Positions 2,475-7,329 of a stretch of 7,329 nt of DNA are shown here, in pieces. The DNA lies in the IMG/VR virus record IMGVR_UViG_2681813205_000003, one strand, 5' to 3'. Source of the DNA: a virus. Its lineage: Duplodnaviria > Heunggongvirae > Uroviricota > Caudoviricetes. Below the pieces are notes generated by a model, which was not told the DNA's origin, made no database searches, and saw only the letters and a list, made by a program, of their open reading frames with translations. Position 1 is the first letter of the stretch; the number at the start of each line of letters is the position of its first letter. The translations under genes were made by a program, and so were the position numbers.

Positions 2475-3311
2475 TCAGAAGTCAGCCAGCTGGTCGGAGG
2501 CTGCGCCCGTTGCGGTGAACCGGTTCTGCGGATCGCCGTCCTGCGTGCGCAGTTTTTCCTTCAGTGCTGTCAGCTCTGTGGTCAGTGACGTAATTTTCTG
2601 GCGGTCCTGCTGATGGCGGGTTTCCAGCACATTAAAACGGTCGATAATGTCGGCCTGTGACGTTGCGACGCCTTCCACCGCTTCCTGAATACGGGAAAAA
2701 CTGGCGTCATCCGCTTTGCGGCCACGGCCAATAATCCCCATTACGCGGTTAAACCACTGGGTGCCTTCTTCCTGGCGTTGTTCTGCCATTTCGATGATTT
2801 CAGACTCGATGGCTTCGGAGATAAGCGGCGCTTCACCCTGGACACTGTTGAACGTCATTACCGCCTGACGTTGCTGTGCCGTGAATTTCAGGCGCTCAGT
2901 GCCCAGGCTTGCCGGGGTGTCGGTCATCGCCAGCCCGACCAGATAGGCGCGCCCGTTAACGGAGAACTGCGGGTGCAGTTCGATACTGGAATAGATTTTC
3001 TTGCCGTCCGCGACAAGCTGCTTCATGCGCTCGGTCGGTTCGATTTCTGCATACAGCGCAGTACGTCCGGCCAGCGGACCTTCCGTAATGTCTTCCGTAC
3101 TCAGTGCGGTGACATCGCCCATTGCGGAAAATTCGCTTGACGGGCATGGCGAGAGATAGTGCTCAACGTTCACGCGGGCAGCGTAAACATCCGGGTTGAA
3201 GTTCTCGGCGGCTTCACGCAGATGCACCGGACTGATTTCACGGCCATCAACAGTTGATCCGGAGACAGCCACGCGAAACTTTTTGCGGGATGTCTTTTTT
3301 TCATTAGCCAT
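2475..3311 (-). CDS. O: Capsid scaffolding protein, P2 gpO-like
   Basis: ORF-track frame 2475..3344. I place the start at the internal ATG at 3311 (MANEKKTSRKKFRVAVSGSTVDGREISPVHLREAAENFNPDVYAARVNVEHY...) because it has a GAGGGG ribosome-binding site 8 nt upstream and the N-terminus then resembles my recollection of P2 gpO (MAKKVSKFFRIGVEGDTCDGRVIS...). Downstream motifs (YSSIELHPQF, YLVGLAMTDTPASLGTERLKF) fit the GPO family. Confidence 0.87.
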   Translation of the reverse strand: MANEKKTSRKKFRVAVSGSTVDGREISPVHLREAAENFNPDVYAARVNVEHYLSPCPSSEFSAMGDVTALSTEDITEGPLAGRTALYAEIEPTERMKQLVADGKKIYSSIELHPQFSVNGRAYLVGLAMTDTPASLGTERLKFTAQQRQAVMTFNSVQGEAPLISEAIESEIIEMAEQRQEEGTQWFNRVMGIIGRGRKADDASFSRIQEAVEGVATSQADIIDRFNVLETRHQQDRQKITSLTTELTALKEKLRTQDGDPQNRFTATGAASDQLADF

Positions 3312-3465
3312 AGTTTTTGCCCCTCTGACTGGTTCTTCAGTCATGATGGCAAAGCGTAACAGGCTGATACAAAGGGCTTTTGTTGTAAGAAAACGGCCAG
3401 AACAGGGGGTTAAGGAGAACAGTTTCGCGCGCGGGTAATCTTCCTGTAATTACTCAGGGGGAGCA
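3312..3465. promoter_or_regulatory. Divergent intergenic control region between O (minus) and P (plus); expected site of the two late promoters
   Basis: 154-bp non-coding gap between divergently transcribed operons, as at the P2 P/O junction. It contains a partial dyad TGTTGT...AGAACA (3381-3404), a small ACAAA/TTTGT inverted repeat (3369-3386), a CGCGCGCG palindrome (3426-3433) and a TGTAAT -10-like hexamer (3445-3450). No exact TGT-N12-ACA activator dyad and no clean sigma70 -35/-10 pair found by eye. Confidence 0.5.
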
Positions 3466-5217
3466 ATGATTCAGGACGCTTTTGTGCGCCAGCGTGCGCG
3501 GCAACTTTACTGGCAGGGTTATCCGCCCGCAGAAATATCACGTCTGATGGGAATAAACCCGAACACGATTTATGCGTGGAAAAAACGCGACCAGTGGGAT
3601 GAAACGCCACCCGTGCAGCGTGTCACGCAGTCCATCGATGCGCGCCTCATCCAGCTTACTGAAAAACAGAATAAAACAGGCGGTGACTTTAAGGAAATAG
3701 ACCTGCTGACCCGGCAGCTTAAAAAACTGCATGATGGCCAGCCGGATGCGACGGCCACAGGAAAGAAAGGCCGGGCGAAAAAACTCAAAAATCATTTCAC
3801 GCCGGAACAGATTGCCGCACTGCGGGAAAAAATCATCAGCAGGCTGGAGTGGCATCAGCGGGGCTGGTTTGACTCCCTGACCCTTTGCAGGGAAGCCGGG
3901 ATACGTAACAGGATGATCCTGAAATCCCGACAGATTGGGGCGACCTGGTATTTTGCACAGGAAGCACTGCTGATGGCGCTGCGTGACGATGTGGCGCAAC
4001 CTTACCAGCGTAACCAGATTTTTTTGTCTGCGTCGCGTCGTCAGGCGTTCCAGTTTAAAAGCATTATTCAGAAGGCCGCGGCTGAAGTTGATGTGGAGCT
4101 GAAAGGGGGCGATAAAATCATCCTCTCCAACGGCGCAGAGCTGCATTTTCTCGGCACTTCTGCTGCGTCGGCACAGTCCTATACGGGCAATTTTTATTTT
4201 GATGAATTTTTCTGGGTCAGTCGCTTTGCTGAACTGCGCAAGGTGGCTGGCGCTATGGCAACCCTCAGCGGACTGCGGCGCACCTACTTCTCCACGCCAT
4301 CCACCGAAACGCACGAGGCATACGCCTACTGGAATGGCGACCGCTGGAACGAGAAAAAGGCCTCGCATAAACGCCAGCGTTTTTCTGTGGACTGGAAAAC
4401 GCTGCATAACGGGCTTATCTGCCCTGACCGGACGTGGCGGCAAATTGTCACGCTGGAAGATGTGGTTAATCACGGCTGGAAACACACCGATATCGACGAA
4501 ATTCGTGATGAAAACACCGAAGACGAGTTCCTCAATCTCTATATGTGTGAGTTTGTCCGCGAAGGGGAATCGGCATTTAACCTGAATATCCTGATTGGCT
4601 GCGGTGTTGACGGATACGACGACTGGAAAGACTGGAAACCTTTTGCTCCCCGACCGATGGGGAATCGTCCGGTATGGATTGGGTATGACGCAAACGGCAG
4701 TAGTGGCAACGGCGACAGCGGCGCTGTGTCCGTTGTGGTTCCTCCGGCTGTTCCTGGTGGCCGTTTTCGAACGGTGGAGACTCGACGCGTTCAGGGGCTG
4801 GAGTTTGAAGAGCAGGCCAGAGTCATTGAAGAGTTCACGTATCGCTACAACGTGGAACACATCGGCATTGATGTGACGGGCGGGAACGGGGAGGCTGTTT
4901 ATCAGATAGTGAAGCGGTTTTTCCCTGCTGCTATTCCGTACACCTTCACGCTGTCATCAAAACGGTCGCTGGTACTGAAAATGCTGCAAATAATGCGTGC
5001 CGGGCGGTGGGAATACGATCGCGCCGAACGCGAGCTGGTCGCGGCCTTTAACGCCGTGCGTAAGGTGAAAACACCGGGCGGCTTTATCACTTACGAAACG
5101 GACCGAGCGAGGGGGATCAGCCACGGCGACCTTGCGTGGGCAACCATGCTTGCTGTCATTAACGAACCGATTGGCGGCGAAGGAGAAAACGAGCGTTTCA
5201 CGGTTATGGAGTTCTGA
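3466..5217 (+). CDS. P: Terminase large (ATPase) subunit, P2 gpP-like
   Basis: 583-aa ORF with a G-rich ribosome-binding site (cagggggagcaATG). N-terminal HTH-like segment (YPPAEISRLMGINPNTIYAWKKR), deviant Walker A-like KSRQIGATWYFAQ and Walker B-like FYFDEFFW, all typical of P2-type terminase ATPase subunits as I recall them. Its stop overlaps the start of the portal gene. Confidence 0.9.
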   Translation: MIQDAFVRQRARQLYWQGYPPAEISRLMGINPNTIYAWKKRDQWDETPPVQRVTQSIDARLIQLTEKQNKTGGDFKEIDLLTRQLKKLHDGQPDATATGKKGRAKKLKNHFTPEQIAALREKIISRLEWHQRGWFDSLTLCREAGIRNRMILKSRQIGATWYFAQEALLMALRDDVAQPYQRNQIFLSASRRQAFQFKSIIQKAAAEVDVELKGGDKIILSNGAELHFLGTSAASAQSYTGNFYFDEFFWVSRFAELRKVAGAMATLSGLRRTYFSTPSTETHEAYAYWNGDRWNEKKASHKRQRFSVDWKTLHNGLICPDRTWRQIVTLEDVVNHGWKHTDIDEIRDENTEDEFLNLYMCEFVREGESAFNLNILIGCGVDGYDDWKDWKPFAPRPMGNRPVWIGYDANGSSGNGDSGAVSVVVPPAVPGGRFRTVETRRVQGLEFEEQARVIEEFTYRYNVEHIGIDVTGGNGEAVYQIVKRFFPAAIPYTFTLSSKRSLVLKMLQIMRAGRWEYDRAERELVAAFNAVRKVKTPGGFITYETDRARGISHGDLAWATMLAVINEPIGGEGENERFTVMEF

Positions 5218-6263
5218 TGAGCAGAAAAAATAAAAAAGTGCGCATGAGTTCACGCATTGATCTCGCTGATGCGCTCAGGAAAGAATCATCGCTCAGTGCA
5301 TTCACATTTGATGGTCCTTATCGCCTGACCGGGCATGACCTGCTGGATAATATGTACTGTGCTGATAACGGGCGGTGGTATGAAACCCCGGTGGACTGGT
5401 ACGGTCTGGCAAGAGCTGCCCGGCAAACGTCCTGGCATCAGTCTGCGCTTTACTTTAAGCGCAATGTATTACTCGGTTGCTACATCCCGCACCCGTTGCT
5501 TTCCCGGCAGGATTTCTCGGCGCTGGCGCTGGACTGGTTTGTGTTCGGTAACGCATTCCTTGAGCTTCGAAGCAATATGCTCGGCGAACCGCTTAAATTA
5601 CGGCACGCCCTGGCGAAATACATGCGACGCGGAAGCGATCTTGAATCATGGTGGTATGTGCAGGATGGCAAGGGCGCGTTCCAGTTTCGCCCTGGCAAAG
5701 TGTGCCACCTGATGAATCCGGACATTAACCAGGAAATCTACGGCATGCCGGAATATCTTGGCGCATTACTCTCGGCCAGCCTGTCTCATTCGGCGGACAT
5801 GTTCAGAAAACTGTACTACGACAACGGATCCCACGCCGGGTGCATCATCTACATCGGTGCAGCGCAGGTAAACCGCGAAAGCATGGACTCCCTGAAGGAA
5901 ACGCTACAGGGGGCACGTGGTGGTGGTGCGTTTAAAAACGTGCTCATTCATGCGCCCAACGGGGGCAAAGAGGGGGTGCAAATTTTGCCGTTCCAGCAGA
6001 TCACCGCAAAGGATGAGTTCATGAATGTTAAGGCGGCATCCCGTGATGATGTGCTGGCTTCGCACCGCGTTCCGCCGCAACTGATGGGGGCGATGCCGGG
6101 CGAAAAAAGTGCGTTTGGTGATGTGGAGAAGGCAGCGCGGGTTTACGCAATTAACGAGCTGATGCCTGTCATGGAGGCCATGAAGCACATCAATGACTGG
6201 CTTGGTGAAGAGGTGATCCGTTTTAATTCTTATGCTCTTCTTGATGAAAAAACAGCCCCGTGA
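5217..6263 (+). CDS. Q: Portal protein (capsid portal vertex), P2 gpQ-like
   Basis: 348-aa ORF starting at the ATG in the TGATG overlap with the P stop (5215-5219). The translation fits my recollection of P2 gpQ / PBSX-type portal proteins, and P followed by Q matches P2 order. It ends at TGA 6261-6263, inside the loop of the downstream terminator hairpin. Confidence 0.9.
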   Translation: MSRKNKKVRMSSRIDLADALRKESSLSAFTFDGPYRLTGHDLLDNMYCADNGRWYETPVDWYGLARAARQTSWHQSALYFKRNVLLGCYIPHPLLSRQDFSALALDWFVFGNAFLELRSNMLGEPLKLRHALAKYMRRGSDLESWWYVQDGKGAFQFRPGKVCHLMNPDINQEIYGMPEYLGALLSASLSHSADMFRKLYYDNGSHAGCIIYIGAAQVNRESMDSLKETLQGARGGGAFKNVLIHAPNGGKEGVQILPFQQITAKDEFMNVKAASRDDVLASHRVPPQLMGAMPGEKSAFGDVEKAARVYAINELMPVMEAMKHINDWLGEEVIRFNSYALLDEKTAP

Positions 6264-6280
6264 TGGGGCTGTCCTTTTTA
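6245..6280. terminator. Bidirectional intrinsic terminator shared by the convergent Q gene and the 6278..6802 ORF
   Basis: Stem acagcccc (6252-6259) / ggggctgt (6265-6272), 8 bp, with a 5-nt loop gtgat. It is followed on plus by ccttttta (T5) and preceded on plus by gaaaaaa (6245-6251), which gives a U-run after the same hairpin on the minus strand. The stop codons of both convergent genes abut or overlap the structure. Confidence 0.7.
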
Positions 6281-6802
6281 CCAGAGTTGAACCATTTTCT
6301 GGGTGCCGTCAGGCTTGAGATTATCAATTTCAGAGAGAACGTAATATTGGATGGCTTCACAAACGGTGGTGTATGGTGAATTACCTTCTTTAAGTGGCAC
6401 GATATTATTATTAACGCGAACCTGTATTTCATCGTTATACATTGCGATCGAAAGAGGAGTATGCACGAACGCGACTTCGCCAGGTGTGTCGTCAACCACT
6501 GTCTCAATGCTGAAAATCAGTTTTCGCTCATCATTGCCGCCCCTTGCTTTGGGGGTGGCGGCAGGAATCTGAGATAAAGGCATTCTGCGAAACCCTTCAG
6601 TTGTTTCCAGTCCGCATGAAACGTAATGCTGGCGATTACCGTCGCTATCCGTCCATGTCTGTGATGGCAGCTCCAGAGAGATTTCATAAGCATCAACAAT
6701 TCCCTGGGCAAGGTGTACAAGCGGGGTCAGATCTTCATTGCGGCGAAAACTTTCCTTTACCTGCTCTCGTTTTTCTCGTAACTGCTTGTAATTAATGACC
6801 AT
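6278..6802 (-). CDS. Hypothetical protein of unknown function (174 aa); candidate accessory/cargo gene of the prophage
   Basis: Minus-strand ORF. I favour the ATG at 6802 (MVINYKQLREKREQVKESFRRNEDLTPLVH...) because of a strong GGAGG 7 nt upstream (aatggaggctgttttATG); the ORF-track start at 6841 is a GTG. It ends at TAA (complement of 6278-6280) inside the bidirectional terminator. I recognise no family and see no Walker, HEPN or nuclease motif. Hand counts of 60-nt blocks give about 35-52% GC here versus about 55-65% in the structural genes. Confidence 0.6.
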   Translation of the reverse strand: MVINYKQLREKREQVKESFRRNEDLTPLVHLAQGIVDAYEISLELPSQTWTDSDGNRQHYVSCGLETTEGFRRMPLSQIPAATPKARGGNDERKLIFSIETVVDDTPGEVAFVHTPLSIAMYNDEIQVRVNNNIVPLKEGNSPYTTVCEAIQYYVLSEIDNLKPDGTQKMVQLW

Positions 6803-6904
6803 AAAACAGCCTCCATTGATTTCTTTGCTCGTATTTTGCACTTATGAAGTGTGGTCGGCAAGGTGCTGCATCACTGACGCGCTTCGCTTGTCTGCTGCTT
6901 CGCC

Positions 6905-6927
6905 GGGGCATAAAAAATTTATGCCCC
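6905..6927. repeat. Perfect 10-bp-arm inverted repeat with 3-bp spacer (GGGGCATAAA-aaa-TTTATGCCCC)
   Basis: ggggcataaaaaatttatgcccc at 6905-6927 is exactly self-complementary. It lies about 100 bp upstream of the 6802 start codon (in minus-strand sense) and 18 nt downstream of a possible 42-codon small ORF. No T-run follows on either strand, so it is more likely a protein-binding palindrome or RNA hairpin than a canonical terminator. Confidence 0.5.
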
Positions 6928-7207
6928 GACTCTCCAGCTCCTGTATCAGTCAGATAATTTCACGACGCCTTCCAGCTTATTGCCATCATCGGCGGTCAAG
7001 CTCTTACGCCATCCCATCGCGCTGACTGCATGTTCCCGCCGCCCCAGTGCGATTTTGACGGCCTTACCTTTCATCCCATCAAATCAGAACCCCTTACGTC
7101 TTTTTCACGCTCAGCGTGAGCGATACAGCCATTCTGTTGTGTCGCTGCGACATCGTTCAGGGAGTGCTATTTACCCCCTGAAACGCGGGCTGTTCCCCCG
7201 TCACCTG

Positions 7208-7231
7208 CGCGCAGAAAAAGCGCGTTTTTTT
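7208..7231 (+). terminator. Weak candidate plus-strand intrinsic terminator (5-bp GC stem, 7-nt loop, T7 run)
   Basis: cgcgc (7208-7212) / gcgcg (7220-7224) with loop agaaaaa, followed by ttttttt (7225-7231). The stem is short, and no plus-strand gene is evident upstream, so function is uncertain. Confidence 0.3.
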
Positions 7232-7239
7232 GTGCACGC

Positions 7240-7258
7240 ACGGATCCTTGACGGATCC
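7240..7258. repeat. Tandem direct repeat ACGGATCC x2 at 11-bp spacing, each containing the GGATCC palindrome
   Basis: acggatcc at 7240-7247 and 7251-7258, separated by ttg. The one-helical-turn phasing suggests a paired protein-binding site. Confidence 0.45.
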
Positions 7259-7301
7259 AGCCGCAACGCGGGCCGGAAGGGCAAAAAGTCGTTCAAAAAA
7301 A

Positions 7302-7328
7302 TTGTGCAAATTTGTGCACTATTGTGCA
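7302..7328. repeat. Three phased direct repeats TTGTGCA at 10-bp spacing (iteron/operator-like); array may continue beyond the window
   Basis: ttgtgca at 7302-7308, 7312-7318 and 7322-7328. A fourth TGTGCA lies at 7231-7236, immediately after the T-run. The window ends inside the array. Confidence 0.5.
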
Positions 7329-7329
7329 T

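Follow-up and report, generated by a model that had tools for sequence, protein, structure and literature searches.

A predicted cos packaging site in a P88-like, P2-family prophage, diverged from the cos of P2 but colinear with it

P2-type phages package their DNA from circular monomers. Ziermann and Calendar reportedly placed, in 1990, the 19-nt 5′ cohesive ends of P2, 186 and P4 inside a 55-bp conserved core. Cos sites of the P2 family are described as consisting of a 55-bp core with GC-rich 19-nt 5′ ends (PMC9122126, PMC3931495, PMC5694545), and P2 and P4 have just a core cos signal in common (PMC9122126). In P2 and 186 the site falls in the stretch that separates Q, the portal gene, from the accessory genes on the A side; in P2, 186 and P4 a hotspot of variable genes adjoins it, and it is shared by helper phages and satellites. 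The same placement, neighbouring hotspot and sharing are seen at the locus described here, positions 7169–7328 of a 7,329-nt stretch of viral DNA (the window; IMG/VR record IMGVR_UViG_2681813205_000003). On sequence evidence, this locus is very probably the cos packaging site of a P88-like, P2-family prophage, diverged from the cos of P2 but colinear with it.

The ORF map of the window gives the P2-type order of head and packaging genes. Small terminase M (gpM; 553–1353), capsid N (1399–2451) and scaffold O (2475–3344) are on the minus strand, and large terminase P (gpP; 3466–5217) and portal Q (5217–6263) are on the plus strand. These are followed, 3′ of Q in map order, by a cargo gene of 174 amino acids on the minus strand (6278–6802) and then by the region under study (6803–7329). 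By BLAST, this region is 92–94% identical to P88-like phages (Xuanwuvirus, Peduoviridae, that is the P2 family), to which the prophage belongs. The structural and terminase proteins of the window are only 38–47% identical to those of P2, and by this measure the prophage is therefore a distant relative of P2. Beyond the window end, E. coli 2313 (locus L001) has a hypothetical gene, ParR, ParM and then the replication endonuclease gpA. Q is thus followed by the predicted cos and then by accessory genes and gpA, as P2 and 186 are laid out.

The sequence-only reading had described 6803–7329 as ORF-poor and unusually rich in symmetry, and both descriptions held. The region contains short ORFs only, none of the four window ORFs tested had a Pfam match, and comparison of 69 relatives revealed no codon periodicity (variable columns 16, 19 and 21 by phase) together with frameshifting indels. 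A 42-aa ORF annotated in P88_4B11 (window 6946–7074, minus strand) was rejected as a gene, since codon periodicity is missing and several relatives have frameshifts in it. Perfect hairpins (stem of at least 6, loop of at most 10, nested hits counted) numbered nine, where 1000 shuffles preserving dinucleotides gave 1.7 ± 1.7 (P about 0.002). The palindrome first read as having 10-bp arms at 6905–6927 is present, and proved to have 11-bp arms, CGGGGCATAAA and TTTATGCCCCG, around a 3-nt loop (aaa) at 6904–6928; an 11-bp stem arises in about 1 of 1000 shuffles. The dyad CGCTCA-gcg-TGAGCG was found at 7108–7122, where it had been reported, and overlaps TCACGCT-c-AGCGTGA at 7105–7119. TGTCGC-t-GCGACA lies at 7140–7152 rather than 7139–7151. 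The GC hairpin GCGCGC-agaaaaa-GCGCGT, on the plus strand, starts at 7207 rather than 7208 and extends to 7225, with a run of seven T residues (T7) at 7225–7231.

Both sets of phased repeats that had been noticed are also real: ACGGATCC occurs twice, 11 bp apart, at 7240 and 7251, and TTGTGCA occurs four times on the plus strand, three times with 10-bp spacing (7302, 7312 and 7322) and once more at 7230. Four copies of TTGTGCA in the whole window were reached in 23 of 200 shuffles, and the bare count is not significant alone; a phased triple 7-mer was obtained in none of 5000 shuffles. It is the clustering and phasing of the copies, rather than their number, that stand out.

One source of such symmetry would be a structured small or cis-regulatory RNA, transcribed from the plus strand and ending at the hairpin and T7 (7207–7231), which have the canonical form of a terminator. 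The plus strand does fold better than its shuffles (z −3.7), but so, to the same degree, does the minus strand (z −3.8), as expected of dyads in DNA. Near-equal values on the two strands therefore point to DNA dyads and not to a strand-specific RNA, so that the folding of both strands, which the sequence-only reading had suggested as a check, gave no signal for the RNA that it had offered as one option. No Rfam match was obtained at E ≤ 1, and no promoter-like site was found in 6803–7329. The positions that are conserved are unpaired (the T-run and TGCA are invariant), relatives carry indels of 1–5 nt, and the block is common to satellites in unrelated contexts. The 3′ arm of the hairpin (7213–7224) is not conserved outside the P88 group, and the stem is therefore a lineage feature and not a universal requirement. 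Taken with the evidence on both sides, an RNA is a very unlikely explanation of the region.

The left part of the region, 6803–7168, lies outside the cos and consists of the cargo leader, a post-Q stem-loop and a lineage-specific spacer. In relatives that lack the cargo gene (P88, P88_4B11 and others) the match to the window begins only at 6869, and the Q stop is fused directly to the position matching 6869. Positions 6803–6868, which form the 5′ leader of the cargo gene (minus strand) and presumably contain its promoter, are therefore the right-hand end of an inserted module. This module is ~630 bp long (about 6237–6868; homology of the Q 3′ end decays near 6237) and carries its own stem-loop and T-run at 6252–6272. 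The promoter is placed within 6803–6868 by presumption, no promoter consensus having been found there. To describe the whole region as lying upstream of the cargo gene is accordingly right for 6803–6868 and not for the remainder, which is present in cargo-less relatives.

The palindrome at 6904–6928 is 100% conserved in 68 P88-type sequences and lies 26 nt past the Q stop in the cargo-less P88_4B11. It occupies the same relative position as tQ of P2 and tW of 186, which suggests a putative terminator. It has no T-run on either strand and does not fit the intrinsic-terminator consensus, and any such activity may be weak. Between the palindrome and the cos lies a non-coding spacer (6929–7168) holding the dyads at 7105–7122 and 7140–7152, which is about 92% conserved among P88-like phages and cannot be aligned in other genera or in satellites. 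The distance from Q to cos is about 940 bp with the cargo gene here, about 180 bp in the cargo-less P88_4B11 and 167 bp in P2.

Phased direct repeats combined with palindromes are typical of iterons, operators and centromeres, and the genes for ParM and ParR lie just past the window end. The dyads and repeats could act for the cargo gene or for ParMR as operators, as an origin or as a parC-like centromere, and sites for a cargo-encoded regulator had been among the options of the sequence-only reading. That option is contradicted by the cargo-less relatives, which keep 6869–7329 at about 92–94% identity. The cargo protein itself has no Pfam match and no PADLOC match, and matches only PHROG 5091, a family whose function is unknown. 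Invariance of the repeat array extends to satellites and to phages that have no ParMR alongside it, such as phiT5282H, in which an S8 peptidase gene follows the array. In characterised parMRC systems parC is upstream of parM, whereas in E. coli 2313 the array is downstream of parR, from which another gene separates it, and not upstream of parM. An origin is also expected elsewhere, since the replication origin of the P2 family is inside gene A. We therefore regard operators, an origin or a centromere as extremely unlikely.

To compare the region with described cos sites, the P2, 186 and P4 records were circularised at their annotated cohesive ends, oriented with Q upstream, and aligned by MAFFT to the window and five relatives. 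The annotated 19-nt ends of all three aligned with window positions 7187–7205, and from there the 19-mer, the hairpin, the T-run with its TGCA and the array of three phased TGCA were in register, and colinear, with the P2, 186 and P4 junctions. Measured from the cos end, TGCA stands at 27, 99, 109 and 119 nt in the window, offsets that recur in phiT5282H and two satellites, compared with 25, 97, 107 and 119–120 nt in P2, 186 and P4. The spacing of 72 nt between the first and second copies is identical in both types. The surrounding motif differs: TGCA at +25 lies within AATGCA in P2, 186 and P4, and TGCA at +27 lies within TTGTGCA in the window, the repeat unit being (A/C)ATGCA(A/C) in the former and TTGTGCA in the latter. 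A point against taking the repeats simply as terminase-binding sites is that the third one in P2 also coincides in part with the −35 region of the old promoter, whose place was estimated from the transcript starts annotated there.

Pairwise comparison was far less informative. Local alignment of the window core with the cos of P2, 186 or P4 gave z values of 0.6–2.4, which are not significant alone, and the opposite orientation scored about equally. A direct search with the P2 and 186 19-mers, combined with local alignment, was tried as a means of finding the site and was discarded, as the scores were no better than those of shuffles. It is because this pairwise similarity is not significant that the sequence-only reading had seen no convincing 19-nt cohesive-end sequence. 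Alignment to the cos regions of P2 and 186, which it had also proposed, supported a cos by colinearity in the multiple alignment and not by pairwise score. Sequence identity alone cannot find the cos here, and the case for homology is built on architecture, position, intermediates and satellites.

The predicted cos begins with a left flank, ATTTACCCCCTGAAACGC (7169–7186), at which homology to E. coli satellites starts: identity of satellite loci L010 and L112 to the window begins at about 7169, and conservation across other genera climbs from about 7173. Next comes the predicted 19-nt cohesive end, the equivalent of cosN (7187–7205), which is rich in GC, contains a G/C run, reads GGTGACGGGGGAACAGCCC on the minus strand and equals the P2 end, GGCGAGGCGGGGAAAGCAC, at 13 of 19 positions. 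The predicted overhang starts GGTGACGGGGG, compared with GGCGAGGCGGGG in the P2/186/P4 type; the ends of P2, 186 and P4 are experimentally defined, whereas those of the window are predicted. Nicks are predicted at 7186/7187 and 7205/7206, each within 2 nt. The position is ambiguous by 2 nt, as local alignment favours 7205/7206 and the geometry of the C-run and TGCA would allow 7207/7208. The viable phage P88_4B11 lacks five nucleotides (GCGGG, about 7185–7189) at the predicted left nick, a deletion shared by none of roughly 130 other tabulated loci. It may be a tolerated variant of the nick site, or imperfect assembly at the junction.

To the right of the predicted cohesive end, the GC hairpin and T7 (7206–7231, plus strand) form the counterpart of the hairpin and T-run that abut cos in P2, 186 and P4, and the hairpin (7207–7225) with its T7 fits the consensus of an intrinsic (rho-independent) terminator on the plus strand. 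The first TTGTGCA copy (7230–7236, plus strand), whose TGCA is 27 nt past the predicted cos end, is invariant in phage and satellite loci. A patchily conserved spacer (7237–7301) separates it from the second copy, the starts of the two being 72 nt apart. Within the spacer are a dyad formed by the two copies of ACGGATCC (7240–7258), the second of which is specific to the P88 group, and a GC-rich imperfect dyad (7260–7273). The spacer also contains A-tracts, among them the invariant TCAAAAAAATTG (7292–7303). The site ends with the three phased TTGTGCA copies (7302–7328, plus strand), which are invariant in 114 unique loci and beyond which conservation falls sharply, at 7329. All four copies are on one strand, and the triple array is about seven helical turns from the first copy. 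We infer that gpM binds the TTGTGCA copies, the triple array being the presumed equivalent of cosB.

For the conservation profile, genome contigs were scanned with the 16-mer GTGCAAATTTGTGCAC. Most matches were chance ones in unrelated phyla, and these were filtered out by requiring the upstream C-run motif, leaving the 114 unique loci. These span Escherichia, Klebsiella, Enterobacter, Citrobacter, Kluyvera, Pantoea, Erwinia, Mixta, Kosakonia and other genera. Three blocks, 7185–7212, 7225–7236 and 7294–7328, are about 90–100% invariant across these loci, both flanks diverge, and the same three blocks are invariant also in 45 loci with an unrelated left flank. The first of them is nearly invariant in about 130 loci. 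Among P88-like phages identity is 97.4% over the core, 92.2% over the left spacer and 39% past position 7335. Weak BLAST matches of Klebsiella and Enterobacter phages are confined to 7184–7217 and 7297–7329.

Intermediates between the two types of cos were also found. In two Klebsiella phages (L007 and L073) the framework is of P88 type but the P2 core, CCCCGCCTCGCC, stands unaltered where the 19-mer is expected, and in one IMG/VR locus (L234) a P2-like 19-mer is joined to a P88-type right half.

A cos could also be cleaved at 7283/7284 instead of at 7187–7205, for the P88_4B11 record (NC_049391) starts and ends exactly there, without duplication, and the nearby GGAAGGGCA is G-rich. According to the source paper of this phage, repeats at contig ends were removed and nt 1 was set relative to reference genomes (PMC6969025), which means that the linearisation point was chosen by reference and not by end mapping. 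The surroundings of 7283/7284 are patchily conserved, do not resemble the ends of the P2 family in the relatives from Klebsiella, and fall in a spacer equivalent to non-cos DNA of P2, 186 and P4. Cleavage at 7283/7284 is very improbable for these reasons. The termini of records and contigs were rejected more generally as evidence of physical ends, as only P88_4B11 is linearised in the region. None of the deposited phage records of the P88 group has ends at the predicted site. The IMG/VR contigs are for the most part prophages predicted in the genomes of isolates, and the predicted nicks coincide with the end of none of them. A cos site was annotated in none of the records examined. A literature search with the predicted overhang sequence returned unrelated primer matches only, and a search for a description of the P88 cos found no paper.

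A block of ~150 bp from the predicted cos is carried by eight satellite-like loci, and their sole homology with the phages is confined to it. They come from E. coli ETEC6334 (L010), Kluyvera, Erwinia, Apirhabdus, Enterobacter and Izhakiella, and include a contig that assembles as a circle of ~12.2 kb. The elements encode an integrase, a toprim primase of 889 aa, a zinc-finger protein of the Ogr/Delta type and a homologue of the P2-family capsid, and no portal or terminase was found when the eight loci were searched by tblastn. A cos acts in cis, and it would be for this reason that elements with neither terminase nor portal carry the block, being presumably packaged by helpers. The sharing of the block with satellites, a pattern like that of P2 and P4, is the strongest functional argument short of experiment. 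Of the options raised by the sequence-only reading, the divergent cos is thus the one that found support, located at about 7169–7328 by architecture, intermediates and satellite sharing, with the 19-mer at 7187–7205.

Packaging at the predicted cos can be pictured as follows. The gpM/gpP terminase would recognise the phased TTGTGCA copies at 7230 and at 7302, 7312 and 7322, gpM being the likely recognition subunit. The invariant A/T tracts sit between the first copy and the triple array. gpP would then nick the two strands of the GC-rich 7187–7205 at staggered positions separated by about 19 nt, producing 5′ cohesive ends close to GGTGACGGGGGAACAGCCC, a position predicted to about ±2 nt from the register with P2, 186 and P4. 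Packaging of the DNA would follow nicking. The hairpin and T7 (7207–7231) probably also halt read-through from the late genes P and Q before it enters the accessory and A genes in antisense.

This last function raises the question of whether the region is no more than a zone of transcriptional insulation or termination where the late P-Q unit and the accessory unit converge, with the cos elsewhere. Two stem-loops (6904–6928, and 7207–7225 with T7) lie between genes that converge from either side, as such a zone would require. However, a terminator zone leaves the invariant phased TTGTGCA array and the 28-nt GC block unexplained, as it does the sharing with satellites and the register with the cos of P2, 186 and P4. 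A terminator role for the hairpin is, moreover, compatible with a cos and is included in the scheme above. We give a terminator zone without cos only a very small chance of being correct, and retain the cos at 7169–7328 as the preferred interpretation.

As a cos, the feature is an ordinary and expected one of the P2 family in a diverged, P88-type form, and reveals no new mechanism. Of 5426 complete E. coli genomes, 1152 matched the right-hand 180 bases of the region (7150–7329). The prediction locates the packaging site of this very common prophage family and supplies a specific cohesive-end prediction for P88-like phages. It should aid annotation, in setting genome start points, in recognising satellites, and when cosmids or transducing particles are designed to be used with P88-like helpers. 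Variable cargo DNA adjoins the cos core on either side, in agreement with the hotspot described next to cos in the literature. The satellite family that shares the block is a more interesting lead than the cos itself. It is possible, and we suggest it tentatively, that the P88-type cos, with an overhang of about GGTGACGGGGGAACAGCCC and a TTGTGCA array, defines a packaging-specificity group separate from that of P2, 186 and P4 and shared by Xuanwuvirus- and Novemvirus-like helpers from numerous genera of enterobacteria and by uncharacterised integrative satellites of ~12 kb, which bring a P2-family major capsid homologue of their own, a toprim primase and an Ogr/Delta activator. If so, divergence of the cos together with gpM would set which satellites a helper mobilises.

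Beyond P2, 186 and P4, the predicted site can be compared with two further systems. The end of the Ralstonia phage phiRSA1, determined experimentally, is GGTGAGGCGGGGTCCAAC (PMC5694545). It opens with GGTGAGGCGGGG, its first bases being GGTGAGG, and thereby shares with the window 19-mer both the initial GGTGA and the run of G that comes next. phiRSA1 also belongs to the P2 family, and a hotspot adjoins its cos, between cos and the Q homologue; it differs in that its host is of another clade and the 3′ half of its overhang is unrelated. The cos of phage lambda is organised as cosQ-cosN-cosB, and its R-site repeats are where gpNu1, the small terminase, binds. It has no sequence or protein homology to the window site, its overhang is 12 nt compared with the 19 nt predicted here, and no cosQ equivalent was identified in the window site. 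By analogy, however, a lambda-like logic is apparent: a predicted nicking site, which would yield cohesive ends, accompanied on one side by repeats in the same orientation, to which the small terminase would be recruited, with bendable A/T tracts.

One related IMG/VR locus, L234, carries a mosaic cos packaging site upstream of its own TTGTGCA array. Its 19-mer, the predicted cohesive end (window 7187-7205), is nearer to that of P2, with a reverse complement beginning GGCGACGAGGGAAGGGCGC, and is joined to a hairpin, spacer and repeat array of P88 type. The changeover point is TGCGCGC, directly after the 19-mer. This mosaic structure suggests recombination inside cos itself.

The viable phage P88_4B11 has lost five nucleotides (GCGGG), with a T-to-C change alongside, at L002 ~3325-3335 (window 7185-7194), precisely where the left nick of cos is predicted (7186/7187, ±2 nt). 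The deletion was absent from all of the ~130 other loci tabulated, and could be a variant that the phage tolerates or an artefact of assembly where the cohesive ends join. Further into cos, two copies of ACGGATCC lie at window 7240-7258, within the spacer between the first and second TTGTGCA copies, each containing one GATC (Dam) site. One GATCC is kept at this position in most other genera, and is missing in several satellites.

A P88-type cos was also observed in satellite-like elements of ~12 kb, as in E. coli ETEC6334 (L010 3158-10630) and at loci L112, L028, L032, L055, L060, L061+L084 and L094; one such contig, QAKE01000006, binned as Bacillota, is a circular assembly of 12,207 bp. These elements encode a homologue of the P2-family major capsid protein (Pfam Phage_cap_P2, 360-423 aa), adjoined by an ORF of 236-240 aa, together with an 889-aa toprim primase, an Ogr/Delta protein and one or more integrases. 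Searches of these elements with tblastn gave no match to portal or terminase, and no hit at E<=1e-5 was obtained for alpha, sid, psu or delta of P4. A P4-style satellite with a capsid gene may be an undescribed satellite type.

Among P88-like phages, identity falls from ~100% to ~40% directly past the third TTGTGCA (window 7329 onward), and this drop marks a second variable-cargo site abutting cos. In E. coli 2313 the site (L001 7131-8944) holds a gene for a 135-aa hypothetical protein followed by the partition genes ParR and ParM, the latter a pseudogene; one of 1327 matching places in E. coli was plasmid-borne. On the other side of cos, the 174-aa cargo gene (window 6278-6802, minus strand) lies within a module (~6237-6868) that replaces the final few codons of Q, the portal gene, and carries a stem-loop with a T-run (6252-6272). 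The product of the cargo gene had no match in Pfam or PADLOC, and falls in PHROG 5091, a family whose function is unknown. The interval from Q to cos, in which the cargo gene is located, has been described in the literature as a hotspot for insertions, with the ctx gene of phiCTX and the retrons Ec67 and Ec86 as examples.
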